A program made the translations under genes and the position numbers. From positions 496,001 through 560,000 of the forward strand of contig OZ287070.1 in NCBI GenBank assembly GCA_965645245.1: DNA of 64,000 bases, read 5' to 3'. The DNA comes from Massalongia carnosa (lineage: Eukaryota). Position 1 is the stretch's first letter. Each line of letters starts with the position of its first letter. The notes under the pieces are model-generated. The model was not told the DNA's origin. It worked only from the letters and a program-made list of their open reading frames with translations, and made no database searches. Positions 4,126-64,000 of the stretch are shown one piece after another.

Positions 4126-7100
4126 TTATCGAACAGTGATACCAGATCGTTTGGTGTACATCCGGGCGGCGATATTCATCGAAGCGAGCTCTTGGAAGAG
4201 CAGCTTAGCCGCATACGGAATATGTACCTGAGAGATCCGTGTCTTGTTCTTGCAAGGCCGGCACTCAAACGTGTTCTTCTTCAGGTTTCTGACGTCATGG
4301 TTAGCGCGACAAGCCCCCCCAAGCTTCACCCCCAATGCGATGTGACTTACGCAACCGGCGTCATCAGCCCACAGATATCGCAGATGTGGACGCGAAAGGC
4401 GTCCGACACCTCGAATAGCCGCTCTTTTAAGAATGCACTTGCACCGTGCGAGATCATGCAATCGCGCTCCATTTCCCCAAACCGGAGTCCACCATCTCGG
4501 GCTCTTCCCTCTACAGGTTGCCGAGTGAGGATCTGCACCGGTCCTCGGGCGCGAGCATGGATCTTGTCGTCGACCATGTGTCGTAGGCGCTGGTAGTAGG
4601 TGGGACCCAAGAAAACTTGGGCGACCAGCTTACGGCCCGTGTGACCATTGTACATGACCTCAAAGCCCCGGGATTGGTAGCCATGTTCCCGTAAGAGCCG
4701 GGAAACCGAATCGACGGTGACTTCGGTGAAGGGGGTAGCGTCCCCCTCGAATCCACGAAGAGAGGAAACCTTGCTCAACTGGCACTCAATCAAATGAGCA
4801 ATCGTCATTCGCGAAGGGATCGCATGAGGGTTGATAATGAGGTCCGGCACGACACCTTCGCTGGTGAAGGGCATATCTTCTTGGCGGTACGTGATTCCAA
4901 TGGTGCCTTTCTGCCCATGACGGGAAGCAAACTTGTCCCCAATTTGAGGAATTTTAGTGGTTCGCATGCGAACCTTGACGAACCGGAGGCCTTCAGCATT
5001 CGTGGTTAGAAGGACTTGATCAACGATGCCGTTCTCAGTACTTCGTAAGGGCGTGGAGACATCACGCTTGACATGCAGTTTTGTCCGTTGGCCAAGCTCT
5101 TCGGCGTCTGGAGCGATGGGTGCTGTCTTCCCGATGATAATGTCTTCGCCTGTTACTCGAACGCCAGGAGGAACAATGCCATCGTCATCTAGTTTGTCAT
5201 AAGTGCCATGCTTGAGTTTCAACGTGTCGCTTTTCATAGGCTTTTCAAACTGCTCCACTACAGACATTCCAATCCGCTTCTCCTGATCCGTATATGATCG
5301 ATAAAACAAACTTCGGAAAAGTCCTCGGTCAATGCTGCTCTGGTTCATGATTACCGAGTCTTCTTGGTTGTATCCTGAATAGCAAGCAATAGCCACAATC
5401 GCATTCTGCCCAGCTGGAAGTTCTCGGAACTTGAGGAATTCCATCGACCTCGTGGTGGCCAAAGGTTTCTGGGGGTAGTATAGAATGTTCGCCATGGTAT
5501 CCATGCGCTGATCATAGTTGGTGAGGAAGACTCCCATAGCTTGTTTACCCATAGCAGATTGATAGGTATTTCGGGGAGACTGGGATTATAGTTAGCATCA
5601 AAGAGCCTCAGCACAAGGACCAAATATACCTGATTATGATCTGGAAATGGAATGATGCTCGCACATATCCCAAGAATCATACTGGGATGAATCTCGCAGT
5701 GCGTCCATGTATGTGCTGTTGGATTTAGAGGCGCCTTGACTCGTTTGTTGGGATCATCAAGCGAAGGCTCTGGTAAGGCGTATCCTGCTCGTAACTGCCT
5801 GGAAATCTCCAGATCTTCTGGCGTCATGACGATCATAACAGTTTCCTCCTCTTCAGCATCAACATACTCCACCACCCCTTGGTTCACTAGCCCATCCCAG
5901 CCCATAAATCTAGCTTCCCGTTCTTCAGGTTCCAAGTCTGCACTAAGTTCCTTGTCGTCTTCGAGTTTATTAATGTGTTCCTTGGTAAGGACGAGATTAC
6001 CGCAGTTGGGACTTTTCGGATCATTTTCAATGACGAATAGCGGCCGACAGACTCTTCCAGCATCCGTAAAGATCTTGAATTCGCGATCACGAATATCTCG
6101 TACAAGACTGACTTCGTGAGATATCATATGTCGCCTCCGCAATGACAGCACGGTGCTGACAAGGTGAGCTGGATCTCGATGGATGCCAACCCAAACCCCA
6201 TTGACAAAAACCTTAGTTGCGTTTGGAGAGCGTAGAGGCTCATACTCTTCGAGTACTTCCATATTTCTCTGAATCATGAAGTCAATGATAGGTTCGCTTG
6301 GGGTGCCGACGGTGATGTAGCACATCAGCGCCAGATTCTTTACGAGCCCACAAGCCTGTCCTTCTGGCGTTTCGGCTGGGCAGACTAAACCCCAATGCGT
6401 GTTATGTAACTGTCGTGGTTTTGCTATCTTCCCATCACGGCCAATAGGAGTGTTTGTACGCCGAAGATGTGAAAGCGTAGAAGCGAATGTATAGCGATTC
6501 AGTACTTGAGAGACACCGGCTTTAGATGAGGCGGCCTTTTTCTGGTCACCCCAGTTACCAGTAGCCAGAGAGTATTTCAGACCATTCGTCAACGTTGTAG
6601 ATTTAACACCAAGGGTTAAATTAAACTCACGATTGGTTTCTACACACTTTTGAAGGTATTTATAAACATCCTTGGTCAGTTTGTTGAACAGCATGCGAAA
6701 AAGTCCAGCAAGCAGGGGACCGGCGAGATCCAGACGCTTTTTCCCAAAATGATCTCGGTCGTCGACTTCCCTTCGACCCAGAGCACATTGTAACATTCGA
6801 TGCACCATATAACCAAGGAAAAAAGCCTTTCTCGTCTCACTACCTTCAACTTGTGAGATATGGGGAAGAAGCTCTTTCTGCATAATATCACGTGCATACT
6901 TGATCCGTTTCTCCCGAGTGACACCTGAAGAATTACCTCGTTTTCCGATGAAGTCAAGAGCAACCTCGCGATCCTGGATCACAAAGGCTTCTTCAATACA
7001 AGGCTTAAGCATTTCCAGCATTTGGGTGTCGCTGCGATCGTAACAAATATGGTTTAGGATATCCTCGTCGGAAACAACACCCAGAGCCCGAAATACGATA

Positions 7101-8008
7101 GCAATTGGAATTTCCGACTTGATGTAAGGCAAGGTTGACTTGATGGTCTGGCCAAACCCACCTTTGGATCCCTCGCCCTTTGCGAACAGCTTGATCTGCA
7201 TACTCGATATTAATCTAGAGCCCTTTTCAACAGCACTACGGATCTCCGCGACAAATGGTGTTGCGTTAGGAGGTGCTTTCTTAAAGACTTGTACGATGTT
7301 GGCTGCGCTTCGCTCTTGCGCAATGAGAACCTTCTCGCTGCCGTTGATAATAAAGTATCCCCCTTGATCATAAGGACATTCATCCCAATTGTATAGCTCT
7401 GCCTCTGTAAGATCTTTGAGGATGCAGTACTTTGACTTCAACATAATGGGTAGCTTCCCCACAAAGACTTTGGTTGGCTCCTGATCATCTTCACCTCCAT
7501 CCTCATTCTCCCAAAGGAGATTTGAGCCGCCTGGCTGCTTTTGTGTTTCTGCTTCCGACCCAGGCTCTTCATCACCAGGCTCAAGCACTGGCCGCTCACG
7601 CGCCACCGAAACTTTCTTTGTCATCTCAAGGTATAACGGACTGGAATAAGTAAGGTTTCGCAAACGAGCTTCCTGTGGCAACATAGCGCTAGTGCTTCCA
7701 TCACCCTCAGTCATAGCTGGCCTCGAAAGTAGAACTGTTCCGAACTTGATTTCGTATCTTCGGGCAGCGAGCCGGTCTGACTCGTCCTCAACCGGGGGCG
7801 AAGCCTGGTCTAGCGTGAGAAGCGAGTTCTCTTCCACCAGCTCTTGCATGGTCGTTGAGACAAACTCGTCAAACGAGTCCAGCTGCTGCGACACCAAGCC
7901 CTTGGTGTCGAAGAATGACGAAATCACGGTCCAACAGTCCTCGGCAGTGATGCCCTCATCTTCCTCTTCAAGATAGCCCTCGTCATACGGTTCTTCGTAA
8001 GCCGCCAT
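4126..8008 (-). CDS. RPB2: RNA polymerase II second-largest subunit
   Basis: Exons 8008-5630, 5579-4351 and 4288-4126 (introns of 50 and 62 nt). Motifs [58 protein letters not shown] and the C-terminal Zn finger. Confidence 0.99.
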
Positions 8009-10563
8009 ATTGGCCTGAGCTAAATATGAATGAGAATCAGAATAGCTGAACGTTGAAACGATCTGGACACTAAGAGTCTTGGCCTGACGCTTCAGCTAGT
8101 CGCTTGGTCGTTGTCACGGAACAAGGGACAATAGCTTTTTAACCAAGTTTAGTAAAGTTGGTGTTCTGACTTTACCCTTGGTAAGAGTTCTGCGAAAAAC
8201 CCATCATCCTCTGACACAACCGCTGGAAGAGAACCTTTTAGCTCGTGAAGATAGTCGAGGTGATTTAAATGACAATGCGCGCTAGGAATATTTTAGTTAT
8301 GCCGCCTAAAACAGACTAGCACGAGAAGGCGGGAGCGCTGGGTAAATAGGTCTAACGGATTCAGATAACCACGGCTTTCTCTACTTTGGCTTCGGACCTC
8401 TTAGTGAGAGGCAATTCTGGCATGACCGCTCATCTGTATTCTTCCACAGCTATTTCATTCTTTCTAATAGAGTTATCTAAGCTTGTGTTATGCCAGAAAG
8501 GTTTTTCTACTTAACAACTACGATGGGGCTTTACATACCTTCTCACTACCGCCTAAGTGAATTTGCATCGTATCATTTTAAAAGGCAAAGCAACACCGGT
8601 CGATCAACCATCTGCATTGGTGTGGTATTGACCGCAGTAACAGCCATGCCAAGATATTTGGATGGCGTGATCATACTTTTTCTTTGTTAACCACTCTCCC
8701 TAAATAGGTGAGATTGTATCTGAGATTGTATTTGAGATCGTATTTGACTTTGAGCGGCAGATCATGATATCAAATCCGTGCATTGGTACGAGCTAGAGCA
8801 GCATCTTGCCATAAAACTCAATGGTAATACACACAGCATATCTTCAGCTCTTACGAACGATCTATATATTTCCTGCATTCCTGTAAGCTAGAGTATGAGG
8901 CTCTATTTTATTTTGATGACGAGTGTGATTTGAGTTTCTTCAGACGTTTTTGTATTTTAAGCAGCCTAAAGGCTCCTCACCAATCATTTACCAAAAAAAA
9001 GTGATTGCTTTGCCAACAGTCTTATACGTCTTACATCCAATCCTGAGAGGCGTGCTGTGTAGCTGACAGAGATAGGTTGGATTCTTCGTGGTGGGAAGAG
9101 ACGCTGCACTATCGTATGTAGGACTACTACTTTTTAACCGTCACTGACATTACTCCGAAGATTCTGCTACTTCCTTTCTAATACCCCTGTGGAACAGCAA
9201 GAAACATGTCTGGGGGCAGACACACCCGAAGCCGAGAGTTCAATATGCATTGCTAAGCTCCGTCTAGAGTTCATTGCCAAGGCCCCTCTCTGGAGGCATA
9301 GTGATGGGAAGACGCCGTCAATACAGTTGAATCGGTAGATGTGCAGTATCATACCTGCCTTTCATGCTCATTGCAGACAACTTCATTGCCAGGGAGTTGT
9401 ACGATACCTATTAAGGATTTGGAAGGAGCATGTCTCATGAGCCAACAGGCAGCGATCTGGGGAATCCTTTAATATCAGCCACCAACATCAGGCTTCAGAC
9501 GGGCCTGGTGGCTCAACTTCGATGTTCGAAGGAAAATCCTTTGCTTGGAAGCTAAAAGATCGATGTGATTGGATTTGGTTGGGCACATCGCAGTATATGG
9601 AAAGGTATGGCAAGTTGTTGTTTTAATATCTTACGAAGACGTTTCTATCTGCCGAACACACAAGAGAAAGAATTCGTGAAGAATTTCTTCATGCAGGGAC
9701 AGCGCTATCAAGGCGCTATAGGACAGCAATCTTCAAAATAGACAAGGGCCCTTCTAACGCACGGGCAATGCCGCCACCCATGCGGCATTGGTAAAATCTA
9801 GATGATCGGCGATGTCGAGAAAACTTCGATTGTGATATTTGGTATATTTCCACCGAGATTCGACTTGAAGTGTGTCACATAGGGCCTGAAAGCTCATCGG
9901 TAGCGGCTGAGCAAACACATTGCATTGTATAGATGCTTGACAATACACGTTCCTTCTCTTTTACAGACCAAGCATCCAAGCTCTTTCTCCGAGGCTGTCT
10001 TAGCTCTCAATGCTGCCAGAATAAATTCTGCTTATCTTCTGGATACGAATTCTCAAGAATCCTTCTGTGGTAGTAGAGGTTTATCCATTTCTGGAACCCA
10101 GTCAATGACAGGCTCGCTCACAATCAATAGTTTTTCATCACCTTTGCCCCGCTTTGACTCCCTTCAAGCTCCATTATCTTCGCAGACTAGATTCAATGCA
10201 GTCAATAATAGAAGATGGTGAGAGCTGAATATGTCTCCGGATTTACAGGAGCCACAAGCGTCAATATCAGCGACCGCATTCACCATGAGATCACCATCAG
10301 GGAGTAGGAACCTTTACAATTGGATATGACCAACAACCTGATGTCGCAGGATGTGGCCCGTCATCTTCAGTCGGTGCAGGGTAGGGGACCGGCCGAATGA
10401 CTACTTAATGAGCTCTTTCTGCTGTTTTTGTCCCATCAGTTCACCATCCAGCAGTACCTATTACAACTCCCCCCCCGATTTCCCTCAATCACAACCTCTA
10501 CAATTTCTCCTCTACAAATTATTCTTAGTCCCATAGTTTCAAGGAACTCTTCAGACAAGAACG

Positions 10564-23924: not shown

Positions 23925-24875
23925 TGTCAAAGTGGCCATTACTAAGCGAGCTCGGCCCTCAGCCCTGTCACTCTGTATATAGTCATCTCCCTTTTCTGTA
24001 GTAGCAAGCAAGGTCTTCGCCCATCATCATCTATCTGACAGTTATGAGCCCGGTTGGTCAGCAGTGTTCCGTACACGTTCCGCTACCCTCATTTGATAGA
24101 TAGAAAGAAGCCTTCCTTCACGATAGCTTGACGGAAGCTATTGTGTCGTAAGCCATGTCATCCTTCTTATTCATCACATTAGCCAGATACAACCACGAAG
24201 TAGATACGGGTCGAATAAGCAGACACAAGCCAGAGCCGACACGGGCCAGAGCAGAAACGAGCTGACATCGAGGGACAACGAGCGGGGACGTCAAGCAGAA
24301 ACGAGTCGGACACGAAGCAGAAACGAGCGAGATGTCGGGCAGAAACGAGACTATTACGATAAAGAAGAAAATGACTCCACATCGAGCCTACGAAGGAGAC
24401 GATCAATCAAAAAGCCCTTCGTGCAGGCCAGCATTTATGGCTTAGCATCCACAAAGTAGCTACACTTCGGCCCCATCGAGGGGGTCTCACTAGCTCAGCC
24501 TGCGAAGGAGATTCAATCAAACAATCTTCAGCAAAAAGCCCTTCGTACAGGCCAACAGCAAAAAGCCCTATCTGCTACGTCCGCGGTAGGCAAACGTCCA
24601 TAGTACTCTTCCTATCCACCCACGAGGTCTACGAATGAGTGCTGGTTGTGGGTTTAATGAGGCTACAAAGCAGGACAACATCGTCAAGGAAGAAACTACA
24701 CAGTCAAGGGATGCTCAATGTCAAGGTGACAGCGAGGCCGACAGCAAGGTCCTTCGCTCGAAGGGGTGTGTCATTACTAAGCGAGCTCGGCCCTCAGCCC
24801 TGTCACTCTGTATATAGTCATCTCCCTTTTCTGTAGTAGCAAGCAAGGTCTTCGCCCATAATCATCTATCTGACA
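23925..24875 (+). mobile_element. Non-autonomous mini LTR retrotransposon (TRIM), Copia-type
   Basis: LTRs 23925-24040 and 24769-24875 (TGTCA..TGACA; one substitution plus a 9-bp indel). 5-bp TSD TCAGC at 23920-24 and 24876-80, PBS-like GTTATGAGCCC at 24041, purine tract GAAGGGG before the 3' LTR; no gag/pol ORF. Confidence 0.9.
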
Positions 24876-24917: not shown

Positions 24918-25045
24918 GATAACCTTCATTGGGCCTCCCACCCCGAAGCGTTATCCCTGGTGGTGGCACACTCGGTCGATTCAACAAGCAACATTATTTC
25001 GGCTATGGAGTTCTAAGTCTAGACTGCTTGGCAATCATCGATCGT
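24918..25045 (+). repeat. Direct repeat copy A (~128 bp); copy B at 30926-32393 is interrupted by a Tc1-like element
   Basis: GATAACCTTCATTGGGCCTCCCACCCCG...GGCTATGGAGTTCTAAGTCTAGACTGCTTGGCA.TCATCGATCGT occurs in both places. Confidence 0.9.
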
Positions 25046-25127
25046 TTAAGCATCACATCAGCAAATGCCATGCCACGCGCATGCATACGCCCCCGCCTCG
25101 CAGGTACATACACTACCAGATCCGTGT

Positions 25128-25336
25128 CATATTACCCAACATTACAGCACGGGTCACCTTGGGTAATGATGTGGGTAATAATTACCCAACTTTAATTTTA
25201 ACATCCAATATTACCCAACGTTACAGCACCGTCGCCTTGGGTAATGATGGTTACCCAACTTTAAGTTTAACATCCCATATTACCCAACGTTACAGCACCG
25301 TCACCTTGGGTAATGATTACCCAACTTTGAGTTTAA
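25128..25336. repeat. Three ~70-bp tandem units, each with an ATTACCCAA..TTGGGTAAT inverted repeat (subterminal repeats)
   Basis: Unit ~CATATTACCCAACGTTACAGCACCGTCACCTTGGGTAATGAT..TACCCAACTTTAAGTTTAA repeated three times. Confidence 0.9.
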
Positions 25337-25428: not shown

Positions 25429-26744
25429 TTGACAAAAAAATCACACACCAAAATTTTTACCCCACCGAAAACCCTTCCACACCCATAATCAACAGTAATT
25501 ATTCCATCAACATGCCTCCATCTAGGACTCCCATATTTGATTCTCGTGAGCGACAAAAGCATTATACTACTCCTGTTAAGGCCAAAGTTCAAGGAGCTGT
25601 CGAATTTTGCGAGAGAATGGGAATTTCTTACTATAAAGAGGAAGTTTTTCGAACTTTCGACGTTTCGCGTGAACAAGGCTATGCTTTCTTACGCAACGAC
25701 TCTGCCAGACGACTGGAAAACAATTCCGATGCAGAAGAGACTCGAGGTCGCAAATCCTTAATCACGCCTAAACAAATATGAGAAATGGAGCGAATTTTAG
25801 AGACTGAAGGCATTAAAGGTCGTGGGCTTACATGGAGTCAATTGGGGTATGAAATAGGCCTCGACTGCAGTGGTCGAACAATTCAACGCGCAATGAGTAC
25901 GATGGATTATCACAAGTGACTCTCATGTAGAAGAGGCTAGGTAAACAATAAAACAGCCGCTCATCGAATTGAATGGGCCCAAGTCATGCTGAACAGATAT
26001 CCTGAGTCAGAAGACTGGCATAAAGTACGATTCAGCGATGAAGTTCATTACGGCTGGGTCCCCCAAGGCAAGCTTCGAATCATACGCAAACCCGGTCAAA
26101 GATACTGTCAGGACTGTATTCAGGACGCCAATAAACCAGACGAAAGGGATAAAAAACGTCATCATTGTTGGGCCTCATGCCACAATTTCAAATCAGATAT
26201 TCATTTTTATCGGGTGCCGGGTAATGTCAATGGCAAAATGAGTCAAAAAGCCTACATTGAACAAATTCTCGACCCAGTCGTTCTTCCATGGTTACAATCA
26301 GTTCAGAAGTTCGTTTTGGAAGAAGACGGTGATTCCGGTCATGGACCAGGCAAATCAAACATCGTACGCACCTGGAAGGAGACAAACAACTTAAATCACT
26401 ACTTCAATTATCCTTCACCTCCCGATTTAGCACCTATTGAGAATTGCTGGCAACCTTCAAAACAACATCTTCGTAAATATCCTCATTGGGACGACGTCAC
26501 CACCAAGGAGTTGATTTACGAGGGATGGAGTCTTGTTTTACAGAGATCTATCAACGAAAAGGTAGCGACAATGCCTGATCGTCTTCGAGCAGTAATAGAC
26601 GGTGAAGGAAAAATGGCAGGGTATTAAATGAAGCAATTGGGATTTGATTGAACATCAGATAATGTAAATAGTCATTGTAAATGTGGTAGTAAATTTGACG
26701 TTTTTGGTGGGGTAAAAATTTTGGTGTGTGATTTTTTTTGTCAA
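25429..26744 (+). mobile_element. Tc1-like DNA transposon (DD37E), defective
   Basis: ~43-bp TIRs TTGACAAAAAAATCACACACCAAAATTTTTACCCCACC; both ends flanked by CGG; transposase at 25512-26627. Confidence 0.9.
25512..26627 (+). pseudogene. Tc1-like DDE transposase with three in-frame stops
   Basis: VRFSDE, LEEDGDSGH and PDLAPIENCW; stops TGA (25779), TGA (~25917) and TAG (~25938), all in one frame. Confidence 0.9.
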
Positions 26745-30304: not shown

Positions 30305-31024
30305 AAGGCGAGTTGAGTTGTTCTAGGCTAGGAATTGATCCACTGGACGGACTGAGCTCAAAGAAAGGAAGGGGGAAGGGCCGGGCAGACATAGACTGTA
30401 CAGGTTTTATATATGAAGATAATGTGATCTGGGTATCATTGTCAATACGAGAAAGCCTGATCATTAGATATCCTCGAGACAGATTAAATATAAGTTTTTT
30501 CTTCGATTTTGATTCAGGATGCAGATTTGGCGGCGGCAGTGAGCCTGTAATATTGAGTCGCAAGCTCCAAACTAAGTTTTAATGCATCATGAGTTATTGT
30601 GGGTTTACCCCAACTCGTGGCACCAGACGTATGACTACGTCAGTGCTTGAGTTGGATGGTAGTAGCGAGCGTGGGCTATATAGGCGTGTGCCCCTTTTCG
30701 GGGTCACGTGGCTGGCTAGGCATCCCGTGCCTAACAGCCTCTAGTCGTGCCCACAGCCCGTTCTATACCCAATTATGCTCCTCATCATTATGTAACGTTA
30801 TCCCCTCATGGTGGTAAAACATTGATAGAAAACATTACCCAACGTTACATAAGGATACAACCGTAACCATTAGGTAACGTTATGCAGATATGGTGGTGTA
30901 GGTGGTAATAGGGCGGACTGCTGGCGATAACCTTCATTGGGCCTCCCACCCCGAAAGCGTTATCTCTGGTGGTGGCACACTCTCGGTTGATTCACCAAGT
31001 AACATTATTTCGGCTATGGAGTTC

Positions 31025-32357
31025 AAGGTTGGGTGACATTGGTCCGTGCCCCCCCCCTAAATTTCGAAAAAACAGTCACAAAACAACAACAAAACATCTT
31101 CATTTCTACCATTTTGTTGCGTTACCTTCTCTATCTTTACATTGCTTTATACGAGAAGGCATTGTAGCTACCAAATTGTCAATTTCCTCTTGTTTTACCT
31201 CGTTCTATTCGTGCTGAACGGCCTTCTTCATGTCATCCAGAGTAGTGATAACCATGTCATAACTTCCGATTCGTTGCTTGATTGTCCTCCAAACATTCTC
31301 GATTATGTTGAGATCTGGTGAGCATGGAGGCCATGCTCCATCATTAAACAAAGGAATTTTGAATGAGTCTTTCAGTTGTGAAAGATTTCGCTTTCCAAAC
31401 CCCAAACCATGGGCTCGATTTCCATCCTCCTGAAAGAGAATTTCACCGAACTCTCGGGCATGAAGGGAATGCTCCGTACGTTCATAAGGAGAAATATAAT
31501 TGCTCTCCTGAAAGTACGGAGAAACGACAGGTAGTAGCACCTGTTTTATATAGTCTTCTTTGGTCATTCCCCCCCTGGCCCCGGAGAGATTCTGCAAAAA
31601 CACCAGTTTTGATTTATACCCCCACCCCACCATTCCCCATACTGAAAACGACGTTCTACCACTCCGAAAACGAGTCTGAATGCAATCAAGACAGTATCGT
31701 TCATCCGCCTTGCGAAGAATTTGATCCTTTTTATGTTTGCCCGTTTAAAACGTGCTCTCATCACTGAATCGAAGTCGTTTCCAGGCATGCGTCCAGTTCT
31801 CGAACTTTACAGAGAAAGCGAGTCGAATTTTTCGATTCTTTTCATTGATGAAAGGTTTCGGGCATGCAGTGCATTTGCGATAGCCCAATTGAGCTAAACG
31901 TCGTGCGAGAGTTCGAGGATGAATTGGTAAATTGTGACGTTTGCATAACTGAGCAAATGACATACATCTTCCAGAGTATTTCTCCTTTAGCACCCAATTG
32001 AGCACCTTTTTGATTTCCCAATCGGAGACTTTTCGTGCTTTTCCAGCCCGTTCAGCACCTTTTCTTCTGACTGTGTTTCCAATATCGCGCTGTTTTCGCC
32101 ATTTACGAAGAGTGTCCCGATGCACCCCTGTGACAGCATGAATTCTATGCAGTGATTGCCCTGCGTCCATGCGACCGTAGCATTGATTTTTAATGGGCGT
32201 ACCCCATTCTAAACCATGATAGCCACCTCGTTTACGGGGACTTCGAAAACTGCGTGTAATAGCCATGTGATTGACGAATGATCAATGTAAAATGGTGGTA
32301 GAAGGGGCAGTTTTTCGAAATTTAGGGGGGGGGCACGGACCAATGTCACCCAACCTT
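31025..32357 (-). mobile_element. Tc1-like DNA transposon (DD41E), defective
   Basis: ~46-bp TIRs AAGGTTGGGTGACATTGGTCCGTGCCCCCCCCCTAAATTTCGAAAAA; GTTC on both flanks; splits direct repeat copy B. Confidence 0.93.
31106..32266 (-). pseudogene. Tc1-like DDE transposase with two in-frame stops
   Basis: LRFSDESTF, FQEDGNRAH and WPPCSPDLNIIENVW; TAA at 31745-47 and TAG at 31205-07 interrupt one frame that ends at GNATKW*. Confidence 0.92.
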
Positions 32358-32551
32358 GTTCTAAGTCTAGACTGCTTGGCAGTCATCGATCGTCTTAGCT
32401 CGAGTAGTAATCTGTTGCCGACGAGCTTTAAGAACGGTGAGATCGATATCGTAATGCTTGAGGGATTTATTGCGGAGTAGCTTTGCTTGAGGATCCTCAT
32501 TATGATGAAGATGACGATGGAGATGAACTAAACAAAGAACAAGTATCATTC

Positions 32552-32677
32552 TGCCTCGTGGGGTAAACCACTTTTGGGGTGAACCACGGCTGATGGGTTA
32601 AACCATGCCTCGTGGGGTGAACCACGGCTGGGGTAGACCACGACTGATGGGGTAAACCACGGCTGATGGGGATTAAC
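32552..32677. repeat. Array of ~7 quasi-palindromic TGGGGTAAACCAC motifs
   Basis: TGGGGTAAACCAC, TGGGGTGAACCAC, TGGGTTAAACCAT, TGGGGTAGACCAC etc., with short spacers. Confidence 0.85.
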
Positions 32678-33267
32678 CGGAGAAGCCGTGACCTGATTGA
32701 TGGATCTACAAAAAGGTTATTCAACCCAAGGATCAAGAAACGAAGGCCCAACCATCAAGTTCCATCCATTGATAACTTATCACCTTTACTCGAAGCTGGG
32801 AGAAGTGAAAAGGATGCGGTGTTCGGCTCGCGTAGAGGCATGAGTAACTATAGCATTAGATCGCTCGCCGCAGGCAATGTCCTATGGAAGGTGGAGGCTA
32901 TCGTGATAAATGCACATCATAAAACCGATACCGGCGCAGAGTAAATGAATTCTCGTTGTGGGTAAGCAATATTTTGCTTCTCTGGTTGGTGCTGAAAAGA
33001 GACTTGGTGGGCGTCATTGCGCGAGGGTGATTCGAAAAATTAATTACCTCAAGAAAAAAAACATATGATTAGCAGGCTATGTAAGCAGCATGAAGAGTTC
33101 GCAACGGTAATGATATAGCCTCTCCGAGGCTGCGAACAAAAATAAACAAAATAAATCAAATTGAAATCTGTCCCTTCTAACGAAAACATAGGTCAACGCA
33201 GTTTCACAATCCAACATAACCTCTTGAGGATCCAATACTCTGATCAGGATCCGTATGCAGAGACCCC

Positions 33268-62284: not shown

Positions 62285-64000
62285 TTATTGCCTCACCCTC
62301 TTGCTTTTCCCTAGTAAGTCAGGGAATGAAAACTGAACCGCAACCCCTTGCGACCTGGCAAACTCAACGGCGTCCACGTGGACCGAAGCACAATTCTTGA
62401 GATTGAGATATTCGAGCTTCGCATGCGGCTTCAGTACGAGCGCTTTCACGCCCACACCAGTGACTTTGCTGGACTCGAGATCCAGAACTTTTAAGTGGTG
62501 CAATCTAGTAGCCAGAGCTTCTGCAAGTGCATCGTTGACAGCGCTATCTCCAAGACCTAATTTAACGACCCCGTCCAAGAATCCAAGTCGTAAAAGACAG
62601 TGTATACCCGCCACGTCAAGTTTATGGCATCCCCTAATATTCAGCGATTGAATTCTCCCTTGACTTGGTCGGAGTAGTTCAGAAAACTCAGCTATCTCTA
62701 GATCATAGAAATTTACCAACGAAAGACTTCTCAACGCAGGCAGAGAGCAGTTCAACATGCTAAACATGCTGTCAATGGTCCTGCCGGTCTTGCTACCGCT
62801 ATCAGTAAGATCTAGACTCGATATTGACGGTGGTAATTGAGGAAAACCAAGGCCAATGCTGTGCGCGAGACTGAGTTGTCGAAGCTGGGTCAGAGCACTA
62901 AAGTCCAAACTTGTAGGCTGTGGCCTATGCAACCAGTTCCAACCTTGAATAGCCAGATTTTTGACTAAAGGAATTGCCAACAAGAGCATGTCCTAGTAAT
63001 CTAATTTAGTAGATACAATCTGACCAAATGCTTTATGCTTACCAAGTTGAGTGTGGACCCTGATACGGGTTCCCTTCTTTTGACGCTCAACACCAGCGAG
63101 CGGATTTGGGGCATATTGCTTGGCCACTTGACTATAGTGCTATGAGAAATTACGTTGTGGAACTCCGCTCGCTCGATGCTGCTACAATGACCCAAGAACT
63201 GACTTAAGGTATCAAGAGTGAGTTCGCAACTACCTGAAAGAATGACGGTCTTCAGAGTTTTCGCGAAAGGGGCTGCTTTAAGAAGCGTACTACCACTGAG
63301 GCCACTAGCAACGTCTATGTGTTCTAACCTCTTGCAATGTTGGGTAATGTACCTCAGAATCTCATCATGATGGGGTTTCGAAAAGTGGAAAGTTGCTCTT
63401 GTGGTGCTTCCATTCGAATTTTTCACATAGCTACGTATTGCACCCATGGAGACCGGCTTGACAGCACCCGAAAAGTCAAGATGCCTCCACATTCTCGGCA
63501 TCGAGATCATCATTGACCGCCATGACTTGGATACACATAGAAGTTTTCTATAACAGTGATTATGGAATTAGTGAGGCAAGATTTGAGGCAGAGAATGACT
63601 TACACGACCGTTTGAAAGCCCACATGCTGCAGAATAAGCTCAGCGAGCTCCCCCGGTAAGACGTTCATCGGATCAACAGTTCTTATATGCATGCATAGTT
63701 TATCATGCATGTGCCGGAGAAGCTATACCTGCAACTGAGCATGTAGAGAGGAGTGGTGGTTAAGGACTGACCTCAATGTTAGTACTTCCAGAAGATATTA
63801 TCTTCAGGCCAAATTTGTAAATTCTTAAAGCCAATTGATTTTCTCCTAGGAGTTGAAGAACTTTCCCAGTACGGAGATAACCCTAAGTACATCAGAAACC
63901 ATGCAATGGGAGGTGGTCCTACTGCTCTATTACCATACAACTGGCCTTGTCCTCCCGAATCATACGCTTTCCATCCCGTAATGCAGCTTGCAGATCGCCA
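62285..64000 (-). CDS. TPR-F-box-LRR protein (Dia2/Pof3-like), 5' end outside window
   Basis: TPR-like AALRDGKRMI..GYLRTGKVLQLLG; F-box DPMNVLPGELAELILQHV..CVSKSW..W..LDFS; LRRs LDLESSKVTGVGVKALV; several introns. Confidence 0.85.

Follow-up and report, generated by a model that had tools for sequence, protein, structure and literature searches.

The 64,000-nucleotide stretch of Massalongia carnosa DNA analyzed here (contig OZ287070.1 of assembly GCA_965645245.1, positions 496,001 to 560,000 of the forward strand), referred to below as the window, carries a Tc1-like transposon inserted in a short host repeat and flanked by TT instead of the TA expected for this kind of element. The limits of the element, of its gene and of the insertion site are given in Table 1. 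The transposase gene lies on the minus strand, between two terminal inverted repeats of 48 nt that make up the one strong pair recovered by an inverted-repeat scan. They are 100% complementary, outer C and G included, and the ends of the element read CAAGG...CCTTG. Within the window, the 27-nt end sequence is present only at these two places, for an expectation of 0.00. No further copies or miniature derivatives of the element were found in the window, either by searching the end sequence with up to three mismatches or by blastn. Similarly, internal direct or inverted repeats of the kind that define IR/DR-type ends were sought and none was found beyond the 48-nt ends.

Table 1 Features of the Tc1-like element, its insertion site and the neighboring Rpb2 gene (positions in the window)
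Feature	Position	Strand	Remarks
Whole Tc1-like element	31024..32358	-	1335 bp; limits from the perfect inverted repeat and the homology break relative to empty copy A
Terminal inverted repeat, low-coordinate end	31024..31071	+	CAAGGTTGGG...; downstream of the transposase stop codon
Terminal inverted repeat, high-coordinate end	32311..32358	-	...CCCAACCTTG; upstream of the transposase start codon
Left 2-bp target duplication	31022..31023		TT; filled versus empty site
Right 2-bp target duplication	32359..32360		TT; filled versus empty site
Host repeat copy A, paralogous empty site	24918..25051	+	single TT at 25011-25012; GTTC at 25010-25013
Host repeat copy B, left part	30926..31023	+	92/99 identical to copy A
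Host repeat copy B, right part	32359..32399	+	39/42 identical to copy A, shared GTTC counted in
Transposase pseudogene	31106..32266	-	386 codons (32266 down to 31109) and TAG; Tc3-type helix-turn-helix (HTH), D169, D281, E323
First nonsense mutation, TAA in frame	31745..31747	-	directly after the first catalytic D motif, FSDESTF
Second nonsense mutation, TAG in frame	31205..31207	-	at a conserved W
RNA polymerase second-largest subunit gene	4350..8095	-	Rpb2 domains 1-7; two overlapping frames

The insertion site can be read by comparison with a second copy of the same host repeat. This repeat of ~137 bp is uninterrupted in copy A and interrupted by the element in copy B, and the two copies are 93% identical. 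Their blastn alignments (93% identity on each side, E = 2e-37 for the left flank and E = 2e-13 for the right flank) share exactly GTTC as overlap. Copy A reads ...CGGCTATGGA-GTTC-TAAGTCTAGAC... and copy B reads ...CGGCTATGGA-GTTC(31021-31024)-AAGG...CCTT-GTTC(32358-32361)-TAAGTCTAGAC..., the length inserted in B relative to A being 1337 bp. In other words, the filled site is GGAGTT[CAAGG...CCTTG]TTCTAAG and the empty site is GGAGTTCTAAG, and the 24 bases on each side of the insertion site are the same in A and B. The target duplication of this copy is TT, or formally GTTC, and neither parse is TA: no TA is present at either flank of the element, the TT site being located one base from a TA. 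This comparison bears out the non-TA duplication and the empty site within the window that the first-pass annotation had reported. Since the host repeat copies differ at 7% of their positions, while the two ends of the element are identical and residues 1-386 of its pseudogene are 97.9% identical to the intact paralogue P0047, the insertion postdates the duplication that produced A and B.

Part of the stretch is contained in eight sequencing runs, one of which is labelled as a lichen metagenome. The insertion and the other copies of the element were followed over positions 30700-32700 in the public contigs of four of these runs (X5, X1, X6 and X7); X7 contributes three contigs of depth 2 that correspond to the element interior only, and the uncovered parts in X6 and X7 are no evidence of absence. 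X5 contains the same insertion, its contigs 9 (30926-31048) and 16 (32332-32700) showing no differences, and contig 8 of X1 has the same right junction with 4 differences, which indicates that the insertion is present in a second sample. X5 has 593 contigs on the stretch and the summed word depth of the element is tens of times that of its unique right flank; summed contig depth is not a copy number, and the excess fits a multi-copy family. A joint from 31020 to 32358 found in X5 and X1 at first suggested an allelic empty site, a reading that was set aside because the joint carries copy A's own differences (T>C at 30965 and 30988, deletions at 30954 and 30980). The joint corresponds to copy A and therefore provides no independent support either way.

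Other insertion sites of the family are visible at the right end of the element. Among the contigs listed, four from X1 (consensus ACAG...) and three from X6 (consensus ACAA...) have loose ends behind 32359. All seven right junctions listed have G32358 and T32359 in common and then diverge into other sequence. The agreement among these flanks (0.53 in X1 and 0.57 in X6) is the value for four and three unrelated sequences, so the seven junctions represent independent insertion sites; the chance of a T in 7/7 is about 0.26^7, roughly 1e-4. The first divergent base has consensus A in both X1 and X6, i.e. ...CCTTG-TA, and the simplest reading is that the other copies sit at the canonical TA target. 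The first-pass annotation had named other copies flanked by TA, with longer inverted repeats, as the observation that would speak against its own proposal, and at the right end this appears to be what the seven junctions display. Outside these runs, the sequence of the inverted-repeat end had no exact match in metagenome, genome or viral contig collections, and a family alignment search for relatives retrieved none from metagenome contigs or genome contigs.

The contigs also reveal some variation in the ends of the element. The inverted repeats include a 9-base C/G run (31049-31057 and 32325-33) and an A run (31065-31071) whose length differs among copies, base 31067 being absent in 6 X5 contigs and throughout the X6 depth. 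The flank contigs of the element locus end at or beside the 9-base C/G run. A variant copy with a damaged end, represented by one contig each in X5 and X1, has ATGAT in place of 40 bases within 32294-32335, a replacement that affects the leader and the inner portion of the inverted repeat at the high-coordinate end.

The Tc1-like identity proposed at first pass is supported by the domains of the transposase. The N-terminal part of the pseudogene matches the Pfam domain HTH_Tnp_Tc3_2 (PF01498; E = 4.5e-08, 33.7 bits for a cut-off of 31.5) and its broken C-terminal half matches DDE_3 (PF13358; E = 1.3e-05), with 25.5 bits, below the cut-off of 28.6. Both domains are present in the precomputed annotations of the intact homologues P0001 and P0002. 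D169, D281 and E323 are conserved in the alignment of homologues, the third catalytic residue being an E (IIENVW). Among solved structures, the best match is the catalytic domain of the Sleeping Beauty transposase SB100X (5cr4_A, E = 8.3e-12); the strong alignment is restricted to residues 296-386 and takes in the SPDLN.IEN.W motif and the C-terminal GNATK(W/Y). As a lead only, the protein falls within Tc1-like DDE_3 clusters in a language-model atlas, the nearest of which include Ascomycota.

The two in-frame stops that had been noticed in the transposase gene are indeed present. As both are TAA or TAG and a TGA lies two codons past the terminal TAG, the idea arose that TAA and TAG could be reassigned to Q. 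This was ruled out: at the column of the first stop the homologues have Y (4/7), E (2/7) or T (1/7, P0006) and never Q (0/7), and at the column of the second stop W is present in the 5/5 that cover it. Reassignment also fails because the C-terminus, ...GNATKW, aligns end to end with that of Sleeping Beauty. Moreover, position 31206 is C (giving TGG) in most of the X5 contig depth and throughout X1, X6 and X7. Both stops are therefore nonsense mutations, carried by this copy alone or by a minority of the copies. Clustering at 90% identity groups the protein with others in a set of 15 members, located on contigs that reach 3.8 Mb, and this cluster includes the intact 386-aa proteins P0047 and P0050. 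The family probably retains working transposase genes, and the copy in the window, whose ends are perfect, could be mobilised in trans by these intact paralogues.

The differences between this copy and the others are dominated by transitions (74 of the 94 variable places in X5, with 23 C>T and 22 G>A), and the TAG stop arose by a C-to-T change at CpA on the plus strand, at 31206. As far as the types of substitution go, repeat-induced point mutation in a fungus would fit such a pattern.

The number of residues between the second D and the E was studied together with the closest relatives of the transposase. The alignment places 41 residues between D281 (FQED) and E323 (IIEN), as had been counted in the first-pass annotation. 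In an alignment of 41 sequences, this spacing is shared by the members of the family (P0047, P0050 and P0001), and the spacing is 40 in P0002 and P0003 (52-66% identical), 37 in P0004 and P0005 (40% identical), 38-39 in five other sequences and 34-35 in all 28 others, leaving aside the truncated P0006 and P0007, from which the region is missing. An exhaustive search retrieved 9,605 proteins at E <= 0.001, 39 of them at E <= 1e-30. The 150 best representatives and four earlier matches provided 79 aligned stretches covering D281 and E323; this alignment was made from a single-sequence profile and individual spacings may be off by a residue or two. D and E occupy both columns in 73 of the 79 stretches, with spacings from 32 to 43 (32 in 5 stretches, 34 in 25, 35 in 4, 37 in 8, 38 in 10, 39 in 8, 40 in 7, 41 in 4, 42 in 1 and 43 in 1), and the other six differ at one or both columns. 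Judged by this continuous series among the relatives, the spacing is a variable loop and no mark of a different mechanism.

The element departs from the classical Tc1 pattern (DD34E) by its spacing of 41 residues and from the mariner pattern (DD34D) by having E323 as third residue. It has the Tc3-type HTH, the DDE core with E and the inverted repeats flanking a single gene that characterize the Tc1 branch, and its 1335 bp fall within the size range of that branch (about 1.3-2.4 kb). We regard it as a new member, characterized by its long D-E loop, of the Tc1 branch within the IS630/Tc1/mariner superfamily. The term "DD41E" was found in the literature only in an unrelated botany paper, and a search on non-TA target site duplications in Tc1 mariner elements gave no match; most subscription journals and Repbase/Dfam were outside both searches, which makes the first result weak evidence that the group is undescribed.

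Among known systems, Tc1, Tc3 and Sleeping Beauty (all DD34E) resemble the element in their single open reading frame, length of 1.3 kb, CA...TG inverted repeats and 2-bp duplication, and they share with it the Tc3-type HTH and the DDE_3 core. The DD34E family differs in its spacing (34 residues versus 41) and in its target (TA versus the TT of this copy), and DD34E-type homologues have only about 25-30% protein identity to the transposase of the element. A spacing closer to 41 occurs in Tc1-OP1 of Ogataea parapolymorpha, a fungal DD40E Tc1 element of 5,659 bp encoding a 1,155-aa protein with a serine-rich domain (PMC9977792). Both have Tc1-type transposases with a D-E spacing near 40, that of Tc1-OP1 coming from an ascomycete, and they differ widely in size (5,659 bp and 1,155 aa versus 1,335 bp and 386 aa); the comparison was made by description only.

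The cut-and-paste mechanism is established for the Tc1 family. The observations gathered here are probably best explained by an ordinary Tc1-type transposon, present in many copies in what is probably a lichen-associated ascomycete, of which TA is the usual target, the TT of the present copy being the product of a one-off off-target integration. We infer TA as the usual target of the family, as well as the transposition chemistry and the mobilisation in trans. The transposase, made up of a paired-type helix-turn-helix and an RNase-H-like D,D,E core, would bind the 48-bp inverted ends and excise the element. The 3' ends would then be joined to the target with a 2-bp stagger, normally at TA, and gap repair would generate a 2-bp duplication. 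In the case of the present insertion, a copy of the element would have integrated at TT, one base from TA, in one of the host repeat copies, with a normal 2-bp stagger and intact ends; at such a site, the joining position would be canonical (5' of T) on one strand and non-canonical on the other. The two nonsense mutations would have been acquired later, after which this copy could no longer make its transposase.

This explanation has a precedent in Sleeping Beauty, a TA-specific Tc1-type transposon. In one screen, 1.4% of 2,018,489 mapped Sleeping Beauty sites were non-TA, with 2,659 at TT, and perfect non-TA duplications, of 2 bp as in the present case, were confirmed by PCR at some sites (PMC5801840). 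In HEK293T cells the rate of non-TA integration was 0.2-1.9% and most of the events were deemed aberrant, with TA on one side (PMC7987939). The insertion in the window looks like a genuine off-target integration, because it has complete ends and is flanked by TT on each side, where the aberrant Sleeping Beauty events keep one TA. There are further differences: the Sleeping Beauty events are experimental and come from cultured vertebrate cells, whereas the present one is a natural insertion found in two samples, and the flank is reported to resemble the transposon end in Sleeping Beauty, whereas here the likeness is weak (CTAAGT versus CAAGGT, 4/6). Several points weigh against this explanation. 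The other copies were seen at the right end only, none at the left among the contigs listed. Their flanks are known as a consensus and the A need not be unanimous. The seven junctions are part of a longer list, in the rest of which TT or other junctions may occur. X5, which carries the same insertion and is the run of the likely source organism, has no right-end loose ends among the contigs listed. Finally, one copy gives no frequency, and calling such an event rare relies on the analogy with Sleeping Beauty.

If the off-target explanation is correct, the locus provides a natural non-TA (TT) integration together with its paralogous empty site and suggests that the preference for TA is not absolute in nature either, just as Sleeping Beauty departs from it in cultured cells. 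The locus also adds a Tc1-type family, probably still active, of a lichen-associated eukaryote. As found, all this matters little. If TT turned out to be frequent in the family across the genome, the intact paralogues would offer a natural transposase for the study of how Tc1/mariner enzymes read the target dinucleotide.

One alternative is a relaxed rule of target choice in the family, with T and then either A/T or any base as the site and TT as one of the regular products. The sole copy with a verifiable empty site does have TT and, in the other copies, T alone is certain, the next base being A only as a consensus. In addition, the two columns before the conserved H that follows the second D contain R-A in the transposase of the element and P-K in Sleeping-Beauty-like homologues (LFQEDGNRAH versus IFQQDNDPKH). 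These columns may be equivalent to P247 and K248 of Sleeping Beauty, which are reported to influence target selection (PMC8934666). Nevertheless, the base after the T has consensus A in both runs, and one such event is in keeping with the non-TA rate of 0.2-2% known for a TA-specific enzyme. The palindromic TA also suits the symmetric dimer chemistry of the whole superfamily. A relaxed rule is consequently regarded as unlikely. In its most explicit form, this alternative would make the element part of a DD41E lineage without strict recognition of the second base, using T-A and T-T (T-W) at comparable rates; it would then represent a natural Tc1-type transposase with a non-palindromic target option, a prospect that seems more doubtful still. 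The first-pass annotation had proposed a lineage with altered target choice and cut stagger. That proposal is not sustained: the 2-bp stagger at TT is canonical, the consensus at the seven right junctions listed for other copies is CCTTG-TA, the D-E spacings form a continuous series from 32 to 43 and non-TA integration has its precedent in Sleeping Beauty.

The insertion could also have taken place at TA, the flanks having changed later (with GGAGTACTAAG as the TA site), or copy A could be an unfaithful image of the empty site as a consequence of gene conversion or of excision with repair. The 93% identity between A and B leaves the pre-insertion sequence of B uncertain. Yet, the same A-to-T transversion would be needed on both sides, even though A and B agree at all 24 bases to either side, and the differences among copies are mostly transitions. 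No excision footprint was found in copy A. Altered flanks are therefore considered very improbable in comparison with an off-target integration at TT.

Another possibility is integration independent of the transposase: end joining would have trapped the excised element in a broken chromosome, and TT would result from microhomology or fill-in. End joining usually trims the ends and makes no target duplication, whereas both ends of the present element are complete to the last base and symmetric, with a clean 2-bp direct duplication. Zhou et al. judged most non-TA Sleeping Beauty junctions to be aberrant (PMC7987939), which lends this possibility some plausibility; those aberrant events keep TA on one side, whereas here TT is found on both sides. 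Such a capture is hardly credible for this insertion.

Finally, the ends could be AAGG...CCTT with a 4-bp GTTC duplication and an altered cut stagger, as is formally allowed by the GTTC overlap of the A/B alignments, but this is extremely improbable, as the complementary outer C and G bring the perfect inverted repeat to 48 nt, as G and then T recur at 7/7 listed junctions at unrelated sites, which a variable 4-bp target would not produce, and as Tc1 elements, like many other DDE transposons, as a rule have 5'-CA...TG-3' ends. The first-pass annotation had left the choice between GTTC and TT open; of its two parses TT stands and the 4-bp one is abandoned, since the outer C and G lie in the perfect inverted repeat and the G is kept in the other copies, which makes the duplication one of 2 bp with the canonical stagger. 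Sleeping Beauty itself has CA/TG ends (PMC7987939).

The element is not the only Tc1-like sequence in the window. A second, unrelated relic (25434-26738, with a protein match at 25782-26609 on the plus strand) lies about 380 bp beyond copy A. It has a DDE_3 match, 28.7% protein identity to P0047 and, by count on its translation, a DD37E pattern. Its inverted repeats have a 39-nt core that is 97% complementary, and its ends no longer match outside a GTTGAC core. As these outer ends are degenerate, the true ends of the relic and its target duplication cannot be read.

The rest of the window includes the Rpb2 gene (Table 1), whose presence identifies the stretch as eukaryotic nuclear DNA and whose frame split near 5351-5585 is consistent with an intron or a frame change. 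Further genes of the window encode a cyclic-nucleotide-binding protein and an MFS transporter, and the G+C content is 41-56%. The motif TTACCCAAC(G/A)TTAC, counted with its complement GGGTAA, occurs 9 times with up to two mismatches, for an expectation of 0.2. It is found at 25132-25313, 30835-30848 and 63334-63347, mostly in a 69-bp tandem pair at 25182-25317. In X5 as well as in X1, the bin 30700-30766 far exceeds all others in summed contig depth; the motif and this depth suggest a short repeat of very high abundance. A 104-nt direct repeat just upstream of copy A (23937-24040 and 24772-24875, 99% identical, with starts 835 bp apart) could represent either a local duplication or the two ends of a further small mobile element. 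Lastly, a 51-nt unit forms a perfect tandem duplication at 789-890.

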